A stretch of DNA of 64,000 nt, from the NCBI GenBank assembly GCA_030648005.1, contig JAUSIP010000001.1, positions 6,662-70,661 of the forward strand. The letters run 5' to 3'. Numbering within the stretch: the stretch's first letter is position 1; every line of letters starts with the position of its first letter. The DNA is from a bacterium (GTDB lineage: Bacteria; Patescibacteriota; Minisyncoccia; Phycocordibacterales; UBA12445). This document shows, piece by piece, positions 3,392 through 54,566 of this stretch. The notes under the pieces were generated by a model. It was not told the DNA's origin. It searched no databases and saw only the letters and a program-made list of their open reading frames with translations. Made by a program: the position numbers and the translations under genes.

Positions 3392-5389
3392 CTACTTCGT
3401 CTTGAACTCGTACACACCTTCCCAAGTAGCAGGCGGATGTTCGATGAAGTAAAGTGCACGCTCATTAAGTAACCTCGTTGGGCCGTCGTTTAACTTTTTT
3501 AAAATATCTTCTGTAATCTTCTTAACCTCCTGCCAATCGCCGTTGTAATAAAATCTTCGAGCTTTCTCAAAGTCAGACAAGATCCCCTTCACAGCCTCTT
3601 CCTTCTCTCTCTCGACAACTTCGAAGATCGTGACCGGCAATTTCTTACCTTTAACCTTCACTCTATCCAACTCTCTTATCAAGATCTTCTCTTTCTCTAT
3701 CAGTTCGGCCGGCAGATGATCAAAAGTATGCTGGCTAATAATGATATGCACCCCATAAGTCTTAGTCTGGCCTTCAAGACGCGAAGCGAGATTCACAGTA
3801 TCTCCCATCACAGTGTAGTCAAACTGCTGTTCCGAACCCATATTACCAGCAATCACCTTACCTGAATTCAAACCGATACCTATATCAATAGCCGGATCAC
3901 CTTCTGATACACTCTTCTCATTAAACTTTTTTAGCGCAGTCACCATCTCTAGCGAAGTCAGAACTGCATCCACAGCGTGCATTTTATTGGTAAGTGGAGC
4001 ACCCCAGAAGGCCATAATTGCATCGCCGATATACTTGTCTACAACCCCCCGCTTTTTTAGAGCAATGTCAGTCATTACAGTAAGGTACTTATTTAAGAAA
4101 TGTACCAGCTGTCCGGGAGTGAGGCCTTCAGAAAGATTTGTGAATCCGCGAACATCGGAGAAAAATACAGTGGTCTCTTTCTCGTCTCCGCCAAGCTTAA
4201 TCTTAGACGGATCGCGGAGCATCTCTTCCAGAATATCCCTAGAAACATATTTAGAGAAAAGATTACGCAGGTGATTCTTCTCTTTCTCAACAGTAAAATA
4301 ATGATAGGCGAAAGAGACCAATGAGCCGGAGATCCAGGCCAAGTTAATGTGCACAATGTTCGCAACCTGACCCTCGCCAAAAAGGTAGATGATCGCGACA
4401 TTGTAAAAAATACCCAAGACAACATTTACTCCGAGAGCTTTCCATGGCCGTTCACTAAAAGAGAATAGAAGTGCCGGCAATAATGTGGCAAAAAATATCC
4501 AGAACTCAAGCCAGCCCTCACTGATCGGAGCAAGTTTATAATCCTGCAAGATCATGTTTGCGATCTCCGCCTGGATCTCCACTCCACTCATAGCTGTGCC
4601 TCGCGAGAATGGTGTCGGCTTCTCATCATGCAAATCCGCTGCAGTAGAACCTATAAAAATAATTTTGTTTAAGAGTGGTAGATCAATATTTCCTTCATAA
4701 ACTTTCCAGAAAGGCACCATTGGGAATGATCCGGGCGGACCGGCGAATACGATCCGCTCAATACTCTCTTTGGGGTATGAATTTCTATGGCGAAGTCCGG
4801 CCGACTCGACAGTTTTCAATCCTAACGCCTTATTGATCACCGAACTGTCCGCGATCTCTATCCAAAGTGGAACCCTACGCACTACACCATCACGGTCAAG
4901 TATTAGGTTCACATGTGCCGGCGCAGTTAGAGATACATCAGTTATAATTTTCAGATTTTTCACCAGTGGCGCACCTCTCTCTACAAATGCATGCAAGCCG
5001 TCGATATTCACACTGGTAAATTCAACCGGCATTACCAATGGATATTTCAAACCCTCCATAGCCCTCACAAGAGCCCAATCATCTGCCTCTCCTATACGCG
5101 AAGCCTCCGGAAAGATCACATCTAGACCCACAGACTTCGGCTTATACTGCTCCAGATTGGAGAGTGCCTTAGCAAACACAGCTCGAGGCCACGGCCATTG
5201 GCCGATCTTCTGGATAGATTCGTTATCTATACCAATGATAACTATATCTTTATTAATCTCCTTTTTACTGAAGAGAATATCCTCGAAGAACTGCTCTATC
5301 CCCGAGAAAAGTCCGGCACGAAAAGAGCCGACCAGGATTAAGCCGAGAAATGAGTTTAAAAAATAAAAAAATAATTTTTTCCTATTCAT
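3392..5389 (-). CDS. CHASE2 sensor domain / class III adenylate-guanylate cyclase
   Basis: N-terminal CHASE2-like region, TM helices, C-terminal cyclase core FFSDVRGFTNLSE...YIGDAIMAFWGAP. Confidence 0.85.
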   Translation of the reverse strand: MNRKKLFFYFLNSFLGLILVGSFRAGLFSGIEQFFEDILFSKKEINKDIVIIGIDNESIQKIGQWPWPRAVFAKALSNLEQYKPKSVGLDVIFPEASRIGEADDWALVRAMEGLKYPLVMPVEFTSVNIDGLHAFVERGAPLVKNLKIITDVSLTAPAHVNLILDRDGVVRRVPLWIEIADSSVINKALGLKTVESAGLRHRNSYPKESIERIVFAGPPGSFPMVPFWKVYEGNIDLPLLNKIIFIGSTAADLHDEKPTPFSRGTAMSGVEIQAEIANMILQDYKLAPISEGWLEFWIFFATLLPALLFSFSERPWKALGVNVVLGIFYNVAIIYLFGEGQVANIVHINLAWISGSLVSFAYHYFTVEKEKNHLRNLFSKYVSRDILEEMLRDPSKIKLGGDEKETTVFFSDVRGFTNLSEGLTPGQLVHFLNKYLTVMTDIALKKRGVVDKYIGDAIMAFWGAPLTNKMHAVDAVLTSLEMVTALKKFNEKSVSEGDPAIDIGIGLNSGKVIAGNMGSEQQFDYTVMGDTVNLASRLEGQTKTYGVHIIISQHTFDHLPAELIEKEKILIRELDRVKVKGKKLPVTIFEVVEREKEEAVKGILSDFEKARRFYYNGDWQEVKKITEDILKKLNDGPTRLLNERALYFIEHPPATWEGVYEFKTK

Positions 5390-23002: not shown

Positions 23003-23139
23003 TTGCGAAGCAAGGAGACTAAGTGAATGAACTGCTTCATTCACGCCAGAGAGTCGAAGCCCGATTGAGATAGTTTATGATTCCGAGTTTATCGAGGAAG
23101 AAATAAAATATCCAATTGGGGTACTGTTCCTGTAAGGAA

Positions 23140-23158
23140 CGACTCTCTGTAGGGTCAT
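23140..23158 (+). repeat. direct orphan copy of the tRNA-Glu 3' end (CGACTCTCTGTAGGGTCAT)
   Basis: 19-nt identity with 22984..23003; preceded by the GGGTACTG-hairpin motif. Confidence 0.8.
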
Positions 23159-23172
23159 CGCGAAATACCACC

Positions 23173-24155: not shown

Positions 24156-24229
24156 GCGCGTGTAGCTCAGGTGGTTAGAGCGTTACATTGACATTGTAAA
24201 GGCCCCTGGTTCGAGTCCAGGCATGCGCA
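24156..24229 (+). tRNA. tRNA-Val (anticodon GAC)
   Basis: Hand fold: acceptor GCGCGTG/CATGCGC, D-arm GCTCAGGTGGTTAGAGC, loop TTGACAT, T-arm CCTGGTTCGAGTCCAGG. Confidence 0.85.
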
Positions 24230-24249
24230 CAACGAACGAAGTGAGGCGG

Positions 24250-24270
24250 GCACATGCCTGGACTCGAACC
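24250..24270 (+). repeat. inverted copy of the tRNA-Val T-arm/acceptor 3' strand (GCACATGCCTGGACTCGAACC)
   Basis: Reverse complement of 24209..24228 with one mismatch. Confidence 0.8.
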
Positions 24271-24349
24271 TCGAAAGGGGCCGGGAAAACTGTAGTTTTC
24301 CCGTGGAGGAAGGATTGGGAAAACCGTGGGTTTCCCAGTGTGTGAGTAC

Positions 24350-24364
24350 TCCAGGCATGCGCAC
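24350..24364 (+). repeat. direct orphan copy of the tRNA-Val 3' end (TCCAGGCATGCGCAC)
   Basis: 15-nt identity with 24216..24230. Confidence 0.8.
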
Positions 24365-24374
24365 CAGAATAATC

Positions 24375-25571
24375 ATGAGGATATTAAGTATAGAAACAAG
24401 TTGTGATGAGACAGCCATAAGTGTGGTGGAGGCTAGGGGGACGTTAAAATCCCCCTCTTTCAAATTGCTCTCAGGGATTGTCCATTCGCAAGCCGATCTA
24501 CATGCAAAGTGGCAAGGTGTTGTGCCGACCATAGCCAAGAGAGAGCATGCTAAGAACCTGGTGCCGGTTTTAGAACGGGCATTAAAAGAATCCGGGCTTT
24601 TAGAAAATTCAAAAGTACCTGTCCGGTCAGGAAAAATTCAAAATTCAAAACTAGATTTAAAAATAAAAAAAATATTAGAGAGAGAAGAGGGACTTGCAGA
24701 AAGCTTTTTAAATTTTGTGCCTAATATTGAAATTCCGAAGATCGATGCCGTAGCCGTCACCTACGGCCCAGGACTTGAACCAGCTCTATGGACGGGTATT
24801 AACTTTGCGAAAGCGCTATCTGCATATTGGAAGAAACCAGTTGTGCCTGTGAACCACATGGAAGGTCACACACTCTCTGCTCTTCTACCGGGAGCTGTCG
24901 TTGGTGTGGAGGAAAATATTAAACTCAAGATGCCTGTTCTGGCTCTACTTATCAGTGGTGGCCACACTGAACTTGTTTTAATAAAAGACTGGCAGAATTA
25001 TAAGGTTGTCGGACACACCAGAGATGATGCCGTCGGTGAAGCGTTCGATAAAGTAGCAAGAATGCTTGGACTTCCCTATCCAGGTGGCCCACAGATCTCT
25101 AAGATGGCGGAGGGTTATCGAGGTAAAAAAACGATCAAGCTCCCACGCCCTATGATCCACTCTGATGACTTAGATTTTTCTTTTTCAGGATTAAAAACTT
25201 CTGTACTTTATAAAATCAAAGAACTCGGCGAACTATCTCCTGACTTAAAAGCTGAGCTCGCTCACGAATTCGAAGAAGCTGTCGTTGAGGTACTGGTAAG
25301 CAAAACAAAAAAAGCACTAGAGAAATTTGGCGTTAAAACCTTAATCGTCGGCGGAGGGGTTATTTCGAATAAAAAAATACGCCAGGCTTTTCAACAGCTT
25401 ACAAAAGAAAATTTCAAAGATGTGCAACTCCTGATCCCACACCAATCCCTATGTGGAGACAACGCCACTATGATCGGCATGGCTGGATACATGCGTTTGC
25501 TTAGCTATAAATCTAAAAAAACTAGTCCCCAGAAAAATTTCAAGGCTAAGGGCAATCTTGTGCTAAAATAG
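24375..25571 (+). CDS. tsaD: tRNA N6-adenosine threonylcarbamoyltransferase TsaD (Kae1/Gcp family)
   Basis: MRILSIETSCDETAISVV; start at ATG 24375 (the track ORF begins at an upstream GTG). Confidence 0.85.
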   Translation: MRILSIETSCDETAISVVEARGTLKSPSFKLLSGIVHSQADLHAKWQGVVPTIAKREHAKNLVPVLERALKESGLLENSKVPVRSGKIQNSKLDLKIKKILEREEGLAESFLNFVPNIEIPKIDAVAVTYGPGLEPALWTGINFAKALSAYWKKPVVPVNHMEGHTLSALLPGAVVGVEENIKLKMPVLALLISGGHTELVLIKDWQNYKVVGHTRDDAVGEAFDKVARMLGLPYPGGPQISKMAEGYRGKKTIKLPRPMIHSDDLDFSFSGLKTSVLYKIKELGELSPDLKAELAHEFEEAVVEVLVSKTKKALEKFGVKTLIVGGGVISNKKIRQAFQQLTKENFKDVQLLIPHQSLCGDNATMIGMAGYMRLLSYKSKKTSPQKNFKAKGNLVLK

Positions 25572-29581: not shown

Positions 29582-29622
29582 TAATTGCCTCAATAGCCTT
29601 TTTTTGCTAGTATCTTAGCTAT

Positions 29623-29698
29623 GCCGAGGTAGCTCAGTTGGTAGAGCATATGCCTGAAGAGCATGGGGTCGGCGGTTCAAATCCGCCCCTCGGCACCA
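29623..29698 (+). tRNA. tRNA-Phe (anticodon GAA), CCA encoded
   Basis: Hand fold: acceptor GCCGAGG/CCTCGGC, loop CTGAAGA, T-arm GGCGGTTCAAATCCGCC, ACCA. Confidence 0.85.
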
Positions 29699-29703
29699 AA
29701 AAA

Positions 29704-29725
29704 ATCCCCATAAGGGGATTTTTAC
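29704..29725 (+). terminator. hairpin terminator after tRNA-Phe
   Basis: ATCCCCATAAGGGGAT plus T5. Confidence 0.65.
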
Positions 29726-29943
29726 TTGCCGAGGGAGAACGCCAACTGCTTGGCGTTCGTGCGGATTTGAAAGCCACAGCCATGTCCCATGGGGACAGGC
29801 GAGGCGGGGTCGAGAGTACTTAGTCCGCGCAATTTCGCTTTAGCGAAATGAGCAGACTTAGTAACTCGTGACCTAATCCCCCGAAGCTTGGTAAGGACAA
29901 TTTATTTGGAATTAAAATCGGCATAATTAAACAACCGGTTGTT

Positions 29944-29957
29944 CCCTCGGCACCAAA
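29944..29957 (+). repeat. direct orphan copy of the tRNA-Phe 3' end (CCCTCGGCACCAAA)
   Basis: 14-nt identity with 29685..29698+; preceded by the palindrome AACAACCGGTTGTT. Confidence 0.7.
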
Positions 29958-30102
29958 TTTTATCCTTGTTTTGTAACGCTGAAAAATTGACGGTGTGGTG
30001 GAGTTGGAACTTAAGTTAGCTTAGGTTGACTGTGTTCATATATAAATGTTAGTTTAGATGTGGACTGTTTTTGGATAATTGACAATCATCGGAGGTCAAG
30101 TG

Positions 30103-30543
30103 ATGACACATCACGATGAAGTTTTAGACCGGAAGAAAAGCATGAAAAAGCTGCTTGATGATGCTCATGAAGACACAATGCTATTGCCAGATTATGTCAA
30201 ATCTGCGGAAGTCAAGGCTATAGATCCTACTCAATATTTGCGGAGGCGACGCTATATCAATGGGGTCTATGGCGTTAAGAGGTTGATTAGGGAGGCCCCC
30301 AAGCTCGGCCAAGATATCTCTGTAATAGTTCTTGAGTTGGGCGACTTCTACATTTCGAACCACGGCTTCAATCCTGAGACAGATGAATGTAACGGTAATG
30401 TTGTGCTACAAGGTGATGCAGAGAAGATCTATGACTGGTGCTTAGAGAGAAATCTTGGCCCAAAGATTGTCTATTCAAAGGGTGGTAGACCGGAACTCTT
30501 GTTTGTGGGCGTTAGTCAGTTCGTGATAGTTATAACTTGGTAA
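30103..30543 (+). CDS. hypothetical protein
   Basis: Start ATG 30103 with RBS GGAGGT; terminator 30571..30596. Confidence 0.5.
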   Translation: MTHHDEVLDRKKSMKKLLDDAHEDTMLLPDYVKSAEVKAIDPTQYLRRRRYINGVYGVKRLIREAPKLGQDISVIVLELGDFYISNHGFNPETDECNGNVVLQGDAEKIYDWCLERNLGPKIVYSKGGRPELLFVGVSQFVIVITW

Positions 30544-30570
30544 CAACTCTAAGTGTTAATTCTATATTCG

Positions 30571-30596
30571 GCCGTCATATTGACGGCTTTTTATTT
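30571..30596 (+). terminator. rho-independent terminator
   Basis: GCCGTCA/TGACGGC stem plus T5. Confidence 0.75.
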
Positions 30597-30686
30597 TTCT
30601 GCCCAAGCGGATAGGTTTGGTATATAGGGAATCACAAGAGACTTCATTAATTCAGTTCTAACATCATCCACCAGAGTGCACCAAAC

Positions 30687-31055: not shown

Positions 31056-31654
31056 TAATTATATAATAACAAAAAAAGACCCCGGGGACAATCCCGGGGC
31101 CACAACCTCGCATGCTTAGCTAGCTACTCCTTTGACTACTTCGACCTCAGCCTTTTTTCTGCTCGATGCTCTCTTGCCACCAGATAAGATACCGGCACCA
31201 AGTACAAAACCGAAGTTATACCAACCACCATTGTTATGAACCTCATACAGACACACATCACTCGAGAAAAGCGAAATGATCCATGTGATCGGCGCGATTA
31301 TTCCGTGCTACAGACCGAGCCAGAACCCAGCAATATTTCCGTCCGAAGCTGGAACATTCACCGTAGTATTTGGACCGGGGGTACAACCAGTCAGAAGCAG
31401 TACCCCACCCAAGAACAATAGACCGAGCAAGTGTGTTTTCCTCATTGTTCCATCCTTCGAGTTAGAAACGTACACGATCTAGAGAATAGAGTATCATTTA
31501 TATTAAATAAGTCAATAACAAGGAATCTCGCCCTACGGGCGCTGGTACTTTTCGCTCCGATATCCATCGGAGAACGAAAAGTCTTTCGATTCCCCGGCGC
31601 AGGCAAAGCAGTTTGCCTGCTCGGGAGCACAAAAAACCGCTCCGCTCTTGTTTG

Positions 31655-53810: not shown

Positions 53811-53948
53811 AGTGAGCGAAGCGAACGCTCCACGAGCAAGCAAACTGCTTTGCTTGCGTGGTAGGATTCGAAAAGGTTCTCCGTTATCCGATGGCAATCG
53901 GATCGGAAACCTGTACCGTTCATGTAATGAAAGAATCCTTCTAAAAAA

Positions 53949-54566
53949 ATGAAAAACCCCAAAGTAATAATCTACGACAACGACGGAATGATCTGCCATA
54001 GTGGCCGATTTAGCGACAGTTATTCTAAGGAGTTTGGGATTGAGATGGATATAATGAGTCCCTTTTTCGAAGGACCATTTAAAAACTGTCTCGTTGGAAA
54101 AGCAGACCTGAAAGAGGAGTTAGAAAAAGTTTTAGATATATGGAACTGGAAAGGGACAGCCAACCAGCTTCTTGATTACTGGTTTTCAGTAGGAAGCACG
54201 CTCGACGAGAAAGTTTTCCCTACTATTTCAAAATTTAAAGATCAAGGTCTAATAGTATGTCTGGCAACTAATCAGGAAAAATATCGAAAAGAATATTTAG
54301 TTACAAAATTTGGATACGACAAAGTATTTAATGAAATCTTTTCTTCTGCAGAACTAGGCGCTTATAAGAACAGCGAGAAGGGTCTCCAAAAAACTTTCGA
54401 CATCTTGAAAGATAAATATGGCATTGAAGATAGAGACGAGATCATGTACTGGGATGACCGAGAAGGAAATGTTGAACATATAAATCAGTTTGGTATGAAC
54501 GGTCAGCATTATAAAAATTATGAGGAGTTTAGGGATGTAATGGCCGGTCTTGGCTACTTAGTTTAA
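53949..54566 (+). CDS. HAD-superfamily hydrolase
   Basis: IIYDNDGMI (motif I), LATNQ, WDD. Confidence 0.6.
   Translation: MKNPKVIIYDNDGMICHSGRFSDSYSKEFGIEMDIMSPFFEGPFKNCLVGKADLKEELEKVLDIWNWKGTANQLLDYWFSVGSTLDEKVFPTISKFKDQGLIVCLATNQEKYRKEYLVTKFGYDKVFNEIFSSAELGAYKNSEKGLQKTFDILKDKYGIEDRDEIMYWDDREGNVEHINQFGMNGQHYKNYEEFRDVMAGLGYLV

Follow-up and report, generated by a model that had tools for sequence, protein, structure and literature searches.

Folded cassettes built around copies of the host tRNA 3' end lie directly behind tRNA genes in Patescibacteria

Introduction

Why should a complete tRNA gene be followed, some 245 bp further on, by a second copy of its own 3' end, and what is the GC-rich, non-coding DNA that separates the two? 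The question is raised by a locus at positions 29623 to 29957 of a 64,000-nucleotide stretch of contig JAUSIP010000001.1 (the whole of which we call the window), from a bacterium of the Patescibacteriota lineage UBA12445. We find that the segment behind its tRNA-Phe(GAA) gene belongs to a large family of non-coding cassettes of ~130-260 bp, here called type A, that lie directly 3' of tRNA genes in Patescibacteria. Each has four parts: a spacer that usually holds a terminator-like hairpin, an inverted arm corresponding to nucleotides (nt) 54-76 of the tRNA, a junction core, and a second copy of tRNA nt 56-76. The account we favour, at a probability of roughly 45%, is that these are non-autonomous mobile cassettes that enter tRNA genes at the T loop and replace the 3' end, leaving the old end downstream as an 'orphan'.

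Results

Blocks conserved among the window and the loci L007 and L012 (L-numbers label compared loci or contigs from other genomes) provided a search pattern, TTGAAAGCC and GAGGCGGGGTCGA separated by a gap of 15-40 nt. Scanned against contigs representing one genome per species, this pattern returned 54 loci, ~49 of which come from Patescibacteria of many classes and 4-5 of which are chance matches in coding DNA. A covariance model (R1) was built from an alignment of 52 cores (A1) and, with copies counted at E < 1e-6, it detects 77 copies from 53 sources, nearly all of them Patescibacteria, with up to five or six copies per 8 kb. The window contains a single match to R1, at 29759-29883 on the plus strand (76.4 bits, E = 6e-20), and the assignment of this segment as a three-way junction core draws on covariation and on its single-sequence fold as well as on the model.

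In the A1 consensus the junction runs from helix P1 through a GAAA joiner to P2, then through a GG joiner to P3, and from there straight back into P1. Each of P2 and P3 includes a variable hairpin, in P2 together with GCC/GGC and a small internal loop, and in P3 together with GGUCG/UGACC and its invariant G.U, three covarying pairs and an almost invariant bulged A. Pairing on this structure holds in 90.5% of alignment cells, compared with 33-41% when the partners are slid, and the covariation score is 0.512 as opposed to at most 0.126 for slid partners, with both-side changes in 19 of the 30 pairs; RNAalifold was also run on the alignment. Amid the variable helices, ~35 core positions are invariant or nearly so, and the window core folded by itself reproduces the consensus junction.

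The core helices contain 26 G.U and only 6 A.C pairs and one G.U is invariant, from which it follows that the folding strand is the tRNA-sense strand; in keeping with this polarity, all 77 copies are oriented as the tRNA. Both observations bear on the idea that the segment is instead a small RNA gene on the minus strand, starting near 29957 and ending at a shared bidirectional terminator at 29719-29704. The minus strand does fold well (z = -9.6), a weak -35/-10 match lies at 29985-29957, and the hairpin presents a run of seven T on that strand. However, the invariant G.U would become a C.A mismatch in such a transcript and many family members have no terminator of this kind on their 5' side, and we regard a minus-strand gene as highly improbable.

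The association of the core with tRNA genes is strict. A tRNA gene lies on the same strand 20-130 nt upstream of the core in 43 of the 77 copies, 11 more copies lie further along in arrays, and most other copies have a tRNA 3' end upstream that was missed by ARAGORN or lost at the edge of the locus. The host genes are tRNAs for Phe, Leu (five anticodons), Ser, Thr, Val, Met, Asp, Cys, Pro, Tyr, Arg and Glu, which amounts to 12 amino-acid specificities, and one array is headed by a Trp gene. Directly past a conserved GUGAC comes a repeat of the host tRNA, from T-loop C56 (CAA(A/G)TCC) to the 3' end, give or take 3 nt. This direct repeat measures 19-25 nt in more than 20 loci, the duplicated target spans 13-25 nt across copies, and the reverse complement of the same tRNA stretch precedes the junction. 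Among 120 tRNAs in the fetched loci, direct repeats of at least 12 nt are found downstream of 43 and inverted repeats of at least 10 nt downstream of 45, with neither kind occurring upstream of any.

Running from the T loop to the tRNA 3' end, the repeat has the geometry of the attachment (att) sites that tRNA genes offer at their T-loop sublocation. The direct repeat would also be accounted for if the tRNA-Phe locus were the scar of a prophage or genomic island, with attL and attR remaining, the interior deleted and the structure incidental, and the region between the neighbouring Hsp20 gene and tRNA-Phe is indeed a variable island in relatives (see below). Such a scar, however, would hardly have an interior that is a conserved covarying structure occurring 77 times behind many tRNAs, and it leaves the inverted arm without explanation; there are no phage matches either, and we give this reading next to no weight.

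The arms differ from tRNA to tRNA and the core stays constant, which implies that the arms are re-written for each tRNA. Cores do not cluster by tRNA identity: the nearest relative of the window Phe core is a Tyr copy, and a Leu(cag) core is nearer to a Leu(gag) core than to its own ortholog. When the inverted arm was compared with both tRNA-derived copies, it was closer to the real tRNA than to the distal copy in 14 of 37 cases and the reverse was never seen (0 of 37), which suggests that the distal copy is a decaying leftover. Several loci have distal repeats that match the gene (e.g. ..CACA) and not the CCA-tailed mature tRNA. In L018, L047, L069 and L071 the long palindrome formed by the tRNA end, trailer, terminator-like hairpin and arm is near-perfect.

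At the locus that raised the question, where every feature lies on the plus strand, the tRNA-Phe(GAA) gene is complete and encodes its CCA (29623..29698; ARAGORN, and Rfam RF00005 at 73.2 bits), and the cassette occupies 29699-29957: first the terminator-like hairpin, next an arm that reverse-complements tRNA nt 54-76 and is interrupted by a CUGC hairpin, then the core and finally the distal repeat. The proximal copy 'D' (29678..29700), consisting of tRNA nt 56-76 (CAAATCCGCCCCTCGGCACCA) and AA, is the target of both inverted arms, and its final 14 nt recur at 29944-57. The spacer (29699..29726), which is kept in L007, L008 and L012, is an A run, the hairpin ATCCCC-ATAA-GGGGAT at 29704-19 and a T run. 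The sequence-only reading had called this hairpin a terminator, and it is located where that reading put it; its stem has 5-6 bp (5 G-C pairs) and is followed by TTTTT, and a consensus terminator scan made no call. To us it looks like a bidirectional terminator that forms the tip of the long palindrome of D, spacer and inverted arm.

The acceptor part of the inverted arm, TGCCGAGGGA (29727..29736), is the reverse complement of tRNA nt 65-73 and can pair with either 29686-95 or 29943-52. An inverse of the acceptor had been recognized earlier as the 8-mer GCCGAGGG at 29728-35, and the full inverted match extends to 10 nt, TGCCGAGGGA with TCCCTCGGCA (29943-52), forming a 10-bp helix followed by CCA. 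Hairpin 1, GAACGCCAA-CUGC-UUGGCGUUC (29737..29758, one pair longer than the 29738-57 first noted), interrupts the arm between its acceptor and T-stem parts, shows compensatory changes with an unchanged loop in L007, L012 and L008, and proves to be a recurring module that splits the inverted arm in 23 of 76 family copies. The second inverted block, GCGGATTTG (29761-69), is complementary to the tRNA T loop and T stem CAAATCCGC (29678-86). Within the core, this T part of the arm serves as the P1 5' strand (GCGGAUUUG, 29761-69) and is followed by the GAAA joiner (29769-72), P2 (29773-29805), the GG joiner (29806-07), P3 with its invariant G.U pair and bulged A (29808-29873), and the P1 3' strand (29874-81), which is a degenerate copy of tRNA nt 56-64. 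The repeat normally begins in the T loop, and in the window it is this portion, 29874-81, that is degenerate. All features of the sequence-only reading thus lie at the coordinates it gave; what it had not picked up are the second inverted block, the junction core, the T-loop start of the repeat, the restriction of the palindrome (below) to one lineage, and four sister cassettes elsewhere in the window.

Comparison with L007 identifies 29882..29929 as an AT-rich extension that separates the T and acceptor parts of the distal repeat and whose sequence is not conserved past its first ~10 nt. The palindrome AACAACCGGTTGTT (29930..29943), a small hairpin, is present as first described and is lineage-specific, being absent in L007, the closest homolog. 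By contrast, the distal copy 'D', or 'orphan' 3' end, CCCTCGGCACCAAA (29944..29957), is identical to 29687-29700, and what had been picked out as a 14-nt direct copy of the tRNA 3' end is a defining part of the family; its counterpart in L007 is TTCCCTCGGCACCAA, after which a terminator follows. This 14-mer occurs just twice within 64 kb, as does CCCTCGGC, and by our own arithmetic the chance of a given 14-mer recurring inside 300 nt is ~1e-6. The initial description of a GC-rich, structured, non-coding insert also holds: GC content is 0.52-0.56 across 29650-29900 and 0.35-0.47 in the flanks, the ~260-bp cassette contains no open reading frame (ORF) of note, and the segment folds at -100 kcal/mol (z = -7.9 versus shuffles). 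An alternative hairpin of D, spacer and arm (29678-29770) has a free energy of -58 kcal/mol and z = -10.5.

Genes neighbouring the locus in the window encode valyl-tRNA synthetase (ValRS), a PrsW-like membrane protein, Hsp20, LepA and MurJ, and the homologs of Hsp20 assign the window to Parcubacteria, near Candidatus Vogelbacteria. Contigs of relatives share the gene order ValRS, PrsW, Hsp20, ..., tRNA-Phe, ..., tRNA-Arg(cct), tRNA-Gly(ccc), and the tRNA-Phe site can be followed among them. L007 carries a type A cassette of the same layout there, with compensatory changes in the stems and the CTGC loop unchanged. In L012 and L013 the 5' two-thirds are retained and the distal repeat is lost, L008 has a remnant with an internal deletion, tRNA-Phe is bare of any cassette in L003 and L005, and L001 bears a different structured element (type B) that ends in the tRNA-Phe 3' end. 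Among related species the site is thus found filled, empty, degraded or occupied by another type: the cassette is conserved where present, yet the tRNA-Phe site turns over.

These comparisons also speak to the two ways in which the sequence-only reading could have failed, namely that the spacer occurs without the repeat in strains of the same species, or that the spacer is conserved nowhere. L012 and L013, which are related species and not strains, do keep the core after losing the distal repeat, whereas across the family core and repeat go together; and the spacer is conserved, with compensatory changes, among the relatives that carry the cassette.

The core of the trailing element in L001, a closer relative (3430-3528; Hsp20 74% identical), is of the type found in the window tRNA-Val cassette (GGGAAAAC..GUUUUCCC, GGGAAAACCGUGGGUUUCCC), which indicates that one tRNA can carry different core types in related species. 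The arrangement of the site varies too. In L003, L005, L007, L008 and L012, tRNA-Phe lies on the opposite strand to Hsp20 at a distance of 0.6-1.3 kb with differing small genes between, whereas in the window (29600-30600 region) tRNA-Phe and its cassette share the strand of Hsp20 and follow it after 41 nt. An inversion or other rearrangement of the segment must therefore have taken place, and the interval between Hsp20 and tRNA-Phe is a variable island. Beside a run of N in L003, at 4150-4355, there is additionally a further tRNA-Phe, partial (nt 1-46) and preceded by the same 8-nt flank, and then ~160 nt that include a piece like the P3 hairpin of the L007 type A cassette and an inverted T-arm-like segment with an altered loop. 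Either an old cassette that was rearranged or an artefact of assembly may account for this stretch.

The main rival explanation, which we hold to be somewhat less probable than a mobile cassette, is that the cassette is a putative host non-coding RNA tied to tRNA expression. As a tRNA-like trailer, it would form an acceptor/T-like helix from the arm and distal repeat with a 3' ACCA, hairpin 1 would stand in for the tRNA body and the junction for the T loop, and RNase P and 3'-end enzymes would free the RNA. As a cis-acting switch, the arm would pair with either the tRNA 3' half or the distal copy and thereby set the level of tRNA maturation. Conservation between the window and L007 speaks for a host role, as the fold, arms and distal acceptor copy are kept despite deep divergence and tRNA T-loop nt 59 co-varies between the two with both the inverted arm and the distal copy. 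So do the excess of G.U over A.C on the tRNA-sense strand, the existence of two mutually exclusive and very stable pairings (the D/spacer/arm hairpin and the junction fold), the trailers on five of the seven window tRNAs, and the terminators of their own that follow many copies (L007, L019, L033, L047). Some copies, moreover, must be co-transcribed with tRNAs, since those in L045 (a minimal form) and L058 sit inside tRNA clusters without a terminator. The turnover described above weighs on the other side: the cassette is dispensable, being missing or degraded at the same tRNA in L003, L005, L008 and L012, and L001 has another core type there. Tandem and nested copies also count against a host RNA, and a processing mimic needs neither an exact copy of the neighbouring tRNA nor the unpaired acceptor nucleotides of the minimal L045 form.

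In the window, five of the seven tRNA genes (tRNA-Glu, tRNA-Val, tRNA-Phe, tRNA-Arg(cct) and tRNA-Asn) have such a trailer, while tRNA-Ser(cga) and tRNA-Gly(ccc) have none. The four sister cassettes represent at least three further core types, each with an inverted copy of the T-loop/T-stem 3' part of its own tRNA. The tRNA-Glu cassette (23003-23160, plus strand) has a CUGC hairpin and a 19-nt direct repeat, the tRNA-Val cassette (24231-24370, plus strand) has a 15-nt direct repeat, and CUGC hairpins are also present in the cassettes of tRNA-Arg(cct) (about 31510-31653, minus strand) and tRNA-Asn (about 53811-53950, plus strand). The longest ORF of TsaD begins at a GTG at 24303, within the tRNA-Val cassette; its true start is probably the ATG at 24377, where the conserved N-terminus MRILSIETSCDE begins. 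A minus-strand ORF in the same region (24167-24538) is spurious.

Cassettes also build arrays. Tandem copies occur in L036, L062, L066 and L071, with identical units in L036 and L062 and two unlike cassettes, each with its own spacer, in L071. Successive repeats of the L066 array derive from different tRNAs and have CAAGTCC as their sole common part. In L050 a type C cassette is inserted between tRNA-Asp and a type A cassette that is orthologous to that of L047, an arrangement from which it follows that the newest unit adjoins the tRNA and that the unit can be written equally well as [spacer + arm + core + repeat] and as [repeat + spacer + arm + core]. L044, L050, L066, L016 and L024 have additional core types placed between a tRNA and a type A cassette, in nested arrays of unlike cassettes; examples are ..CCUGUACUGAACAUGUAAUGUUCAAGUCC.. 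and ..GACUUUUCG..CGAAAAGUACC... Two other neighbours of cassettes were recorded. In L019 the strand opposite to a cassette carries, ~80 nt from it, a bacterial RNase P RNA of class A (49-441, 110 bits), which is probably a coincidence of RNA-gene clustering, and a 218-aa ORF with a LAGLIDADG-like start (..LGFFAADGNI..) recurs at L040 (2576-3232) and two other cassette loci, with no link to the cassettes established.

Head-to-tail tandems resemble rolling-circle multimers, which brings up mobility at the level of RNA. In an intron- or viroid-like element of this kind the core would be a putative ribozyme and [D - spacer - arm - core] would be cut or spliced out at bonds equivalent to 55|56, circularising into a rod; the arm would act as an internal guide for reverse splicing into the T loop, and reverse transcription would fix the product in DNA. 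The compact core with its many invariant positions is reminiscent of small ribozymes, the arm is guide-like in being complementary to the 3' 'exon', and the junction places the cassette 3' end at the 55|56 bond. Yet at E <= 10 there is no match to any known family of ribozymes or introns, hammerhead, twister and HDV (hepatitis delta virus) cores could not be fitted by hand, and splicing is unneeded where the upstream tRNA is already complete. Since there is also no linked reverse transcriptase, and the distal repeats that copy the gene in several loci are not what an RNA route through CCA-tailed tRNA would leave, we think an RNA-level element rather improbable.

We also searched for the cassettes among known families. 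With the covariance models of Rfam 15, only tRNAs reach the gathering score in the searched sequences, nothing is found in the window spacer at E <= 10, and the sister cassettes are likewise without a match, so that no core type has one. ARAGORN finds no tmRNA at the cassette, a pattern scan of IMG/VR gave no match, and the whole element has no BLAST match in phage and plasmid collections. No recombinase was found in a Pfam scan of neighbouring ORFs, and upon clustering ORFs across ~50 loci, the only families that recur near cassettes are housekeeping genes. Full-text literature searches yielded no description of the cassettes, though writings beyond the searched library may hold one. That literature aside, we regard the cassettes as a new class, as each known family tested fails at least one defining feature.

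Several specific candidates were rejected along the way. tmRNA, SRP (signal recognition particle) RNA, 6S RNA, RNase P RNA and group I introns are negative by Rfam and ARAGORN and their signature sequences are missing. Hammerhead, twister, hairpin and HDV-like ribozymes, also negative by Rfam, did not fit when their cores were compared by hand with the joiners of the cassette core (GAAA, GG and none). A retron msr/msd or tRNA-primed retroelement would call for a reverse transcriptase, of which there is none, and the arm frequently leaves CCA uncovered and runs on into the trailer. Group I or II introns and IStrons are contradicted by the complete upstream tRNA and the lack of an intron model match, and a miniature inverted-repeat transposable element (MITE) or other derivative of an insertion sequence (IS) by arms that vary with each copy to match the local tRNA and by a duplicated target of 13-25 nt instead of a short fixed length. 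Insertion of the cassette after the tRNA's terminator does not account for L050, where the second cassette adjoins tRNA-Asp, and each spacer stays with its own arm. Finally, a template-switch or snap-back origin predicts a repeat that runs through the trailer and terminator, and the repeat generally stops at the tRNA end.

Discussion

Under the mobile-cassette reading, a small circular intermediate, [D - spacer - inverted arm - core], would integrate into the tRNA gene between nt 55 and 56 through site-specific recombination of the Campbell type. The tRNA would receive a new 3' end and a terminator from the incoming cassette, which would displace the old 3' end downstream as the 'orphan'. On the tRNA-sense strand, whether RNA or single-stranded DNA (ssDNA), the molecule would fold into a rod whose D:inverted-arm stem is a copy of the target and which is capped by the spacer hairpin at one end and by the junction at the other. 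The junction would bring the cassette 3' end (GUGAC) beside the 55|56 bond, and the point at which the circle opens, GUGAC|CAAG, would be the same bond. An inverted arm would make sense if a single strand folds to imitate its target, as in CTX-phi attP and integron attC, or if the arm acts as a guide. We infer the mobility, the circular intermediate, an enzyme encoded elsewhere and the RNA or DNA nature of the folded molecule; what recommends the mobile reading is that it explains where the repeat starts and stops, the fixed orientation, the arrays with their heterogeneous repeats, the turnover among relatives and the decay of the distal copy.

A number of observations weigh against this reading. 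Neither an excised form nor an empty site of the same species is present among the compared loci, phage, virus and plasmid collections contain no copy, and the cassettes and their surroundings encode no integrase, transposase or reverse transcriptase. Ordinary integrase biology gives no explanation for one core behind 12 specificities with matched arms, and we were unable to work out how both arms would be made anew at another target. The orthologs in the window and L007 retain arms and fold at a divergence where Hsp20 is 67% identical, and such long conservation is as compatible with a host function as with a selfish element. Behind a spacer that terminates well, transcription of the core may be scant; L045, in a tRNA cluster without a terminator, must be co-transcribed.

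A bolder form of mobility, which we put forward tentatively and at well under even odds, is that the cassettes are new programmable elements that target tRNA genes. The inverted arm would be the guide that chooses the tRNA, the cores, of at least four unrelated types, would be catalytic or recombinase-recruiting RNAs or ssDNAs, and insertion would copy the target 3' end in both orientations by a mechanism without described precedent.

Known systems share some of these properties and lack others. Integrative elements at the T loop of tRNA genes (prophages, integrative and conjugative elements, and derivatives that lack an integrase, such as cis-mobilizable elements) have the same direct repeat from the T loop to just past the tRNA, a tRNA rebuilt by the proximal copy, fixed orientation, tandem insertion and variable presence. 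The cassettes are unlike them in measuring 130-260 bp with no integrase or other gene, in having the same core behind 12 specificities, and in possessing an extra inverted target copy and a conserved, covarying folded interior. Integron attC sites and CTX-phi attP, which are XerCD or integrase substrates of the same general design in being structure-conserved, sequence-variable imperfect palindromes, are likewise strand-specific and array-building, and in CTX-phi attP the folded stem imitates the chromosomal target duplex; the cassettes differ in their tRNA-gene target, the lack of an ORF, their many invariant unpaired bases, the three-way junction and the absence of a linked recombinase. Mobile RNAs with a guide (group I and group II introns, IStrons, bridge RNAs of IS110) also combine a structured core and a segment complementary to the insertion flank with harmless insertion, but in the cassettes no catalytic core or recombinase is detected, the gene is uninterrupted and ~20 nt of target are duplicated.

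Resemblances to RNAs that imitate or use tRNAs are similarly partial. tmRNA, viral 3' tRNA-like structures and mascRNA share an acceptor-copy terminal helix ending in ACCA, whereas the cassettes have no T loop, G3:U70 pair or tag reading frame and are negative by ARAGORN and Rfam; the acceptor of the window cassette reads G1-C2-C3, and the hairpin abutting its 3' strand is not conserved. The retroviral primer-binding site uses about the same tRNA 3' stretch as the inverted arm complements. Unlike it, the arm often omits CCA and reaches into the trailer of the gene, which argues that the arm copies DNA or the primary transcript and not the mature tRNA. Lastly, REPINs, PATEs and MITEs are comparable in size, abundance, hairpin architecture, intergenic placement by terminators and lack of coding capacity, and they differ in that the arms of the cassettes are copies of the local tRNA instead of constant terminal repeats and that the association with tRNA 3' ends is strict.

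Genomes of Patescibacteria measure ~1 Mb and have very little spare DNA, and despite such small genomes five of the seven tRNA genes in the window carry a folded cassette. One practical consequence concerns annotation, because cassettes give rise to spurious ORFs and wrong start codons, as for tsaD, whose annotated start is at 24303. Should the cassettes be mobile, they would represent harmless targeting of essential genes in which specificity apparently resides in base pairing and not in a protein, with relevance for the evolution of mobile elements and for programmable insertion. Should they instead be host RNAs, they would point to a hitherto unrecognized level of tRNA expression or processing in a very large and poorly understood bacterial group. 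Either way, they constitute several new families of structured nucleic acids with strong covariation.

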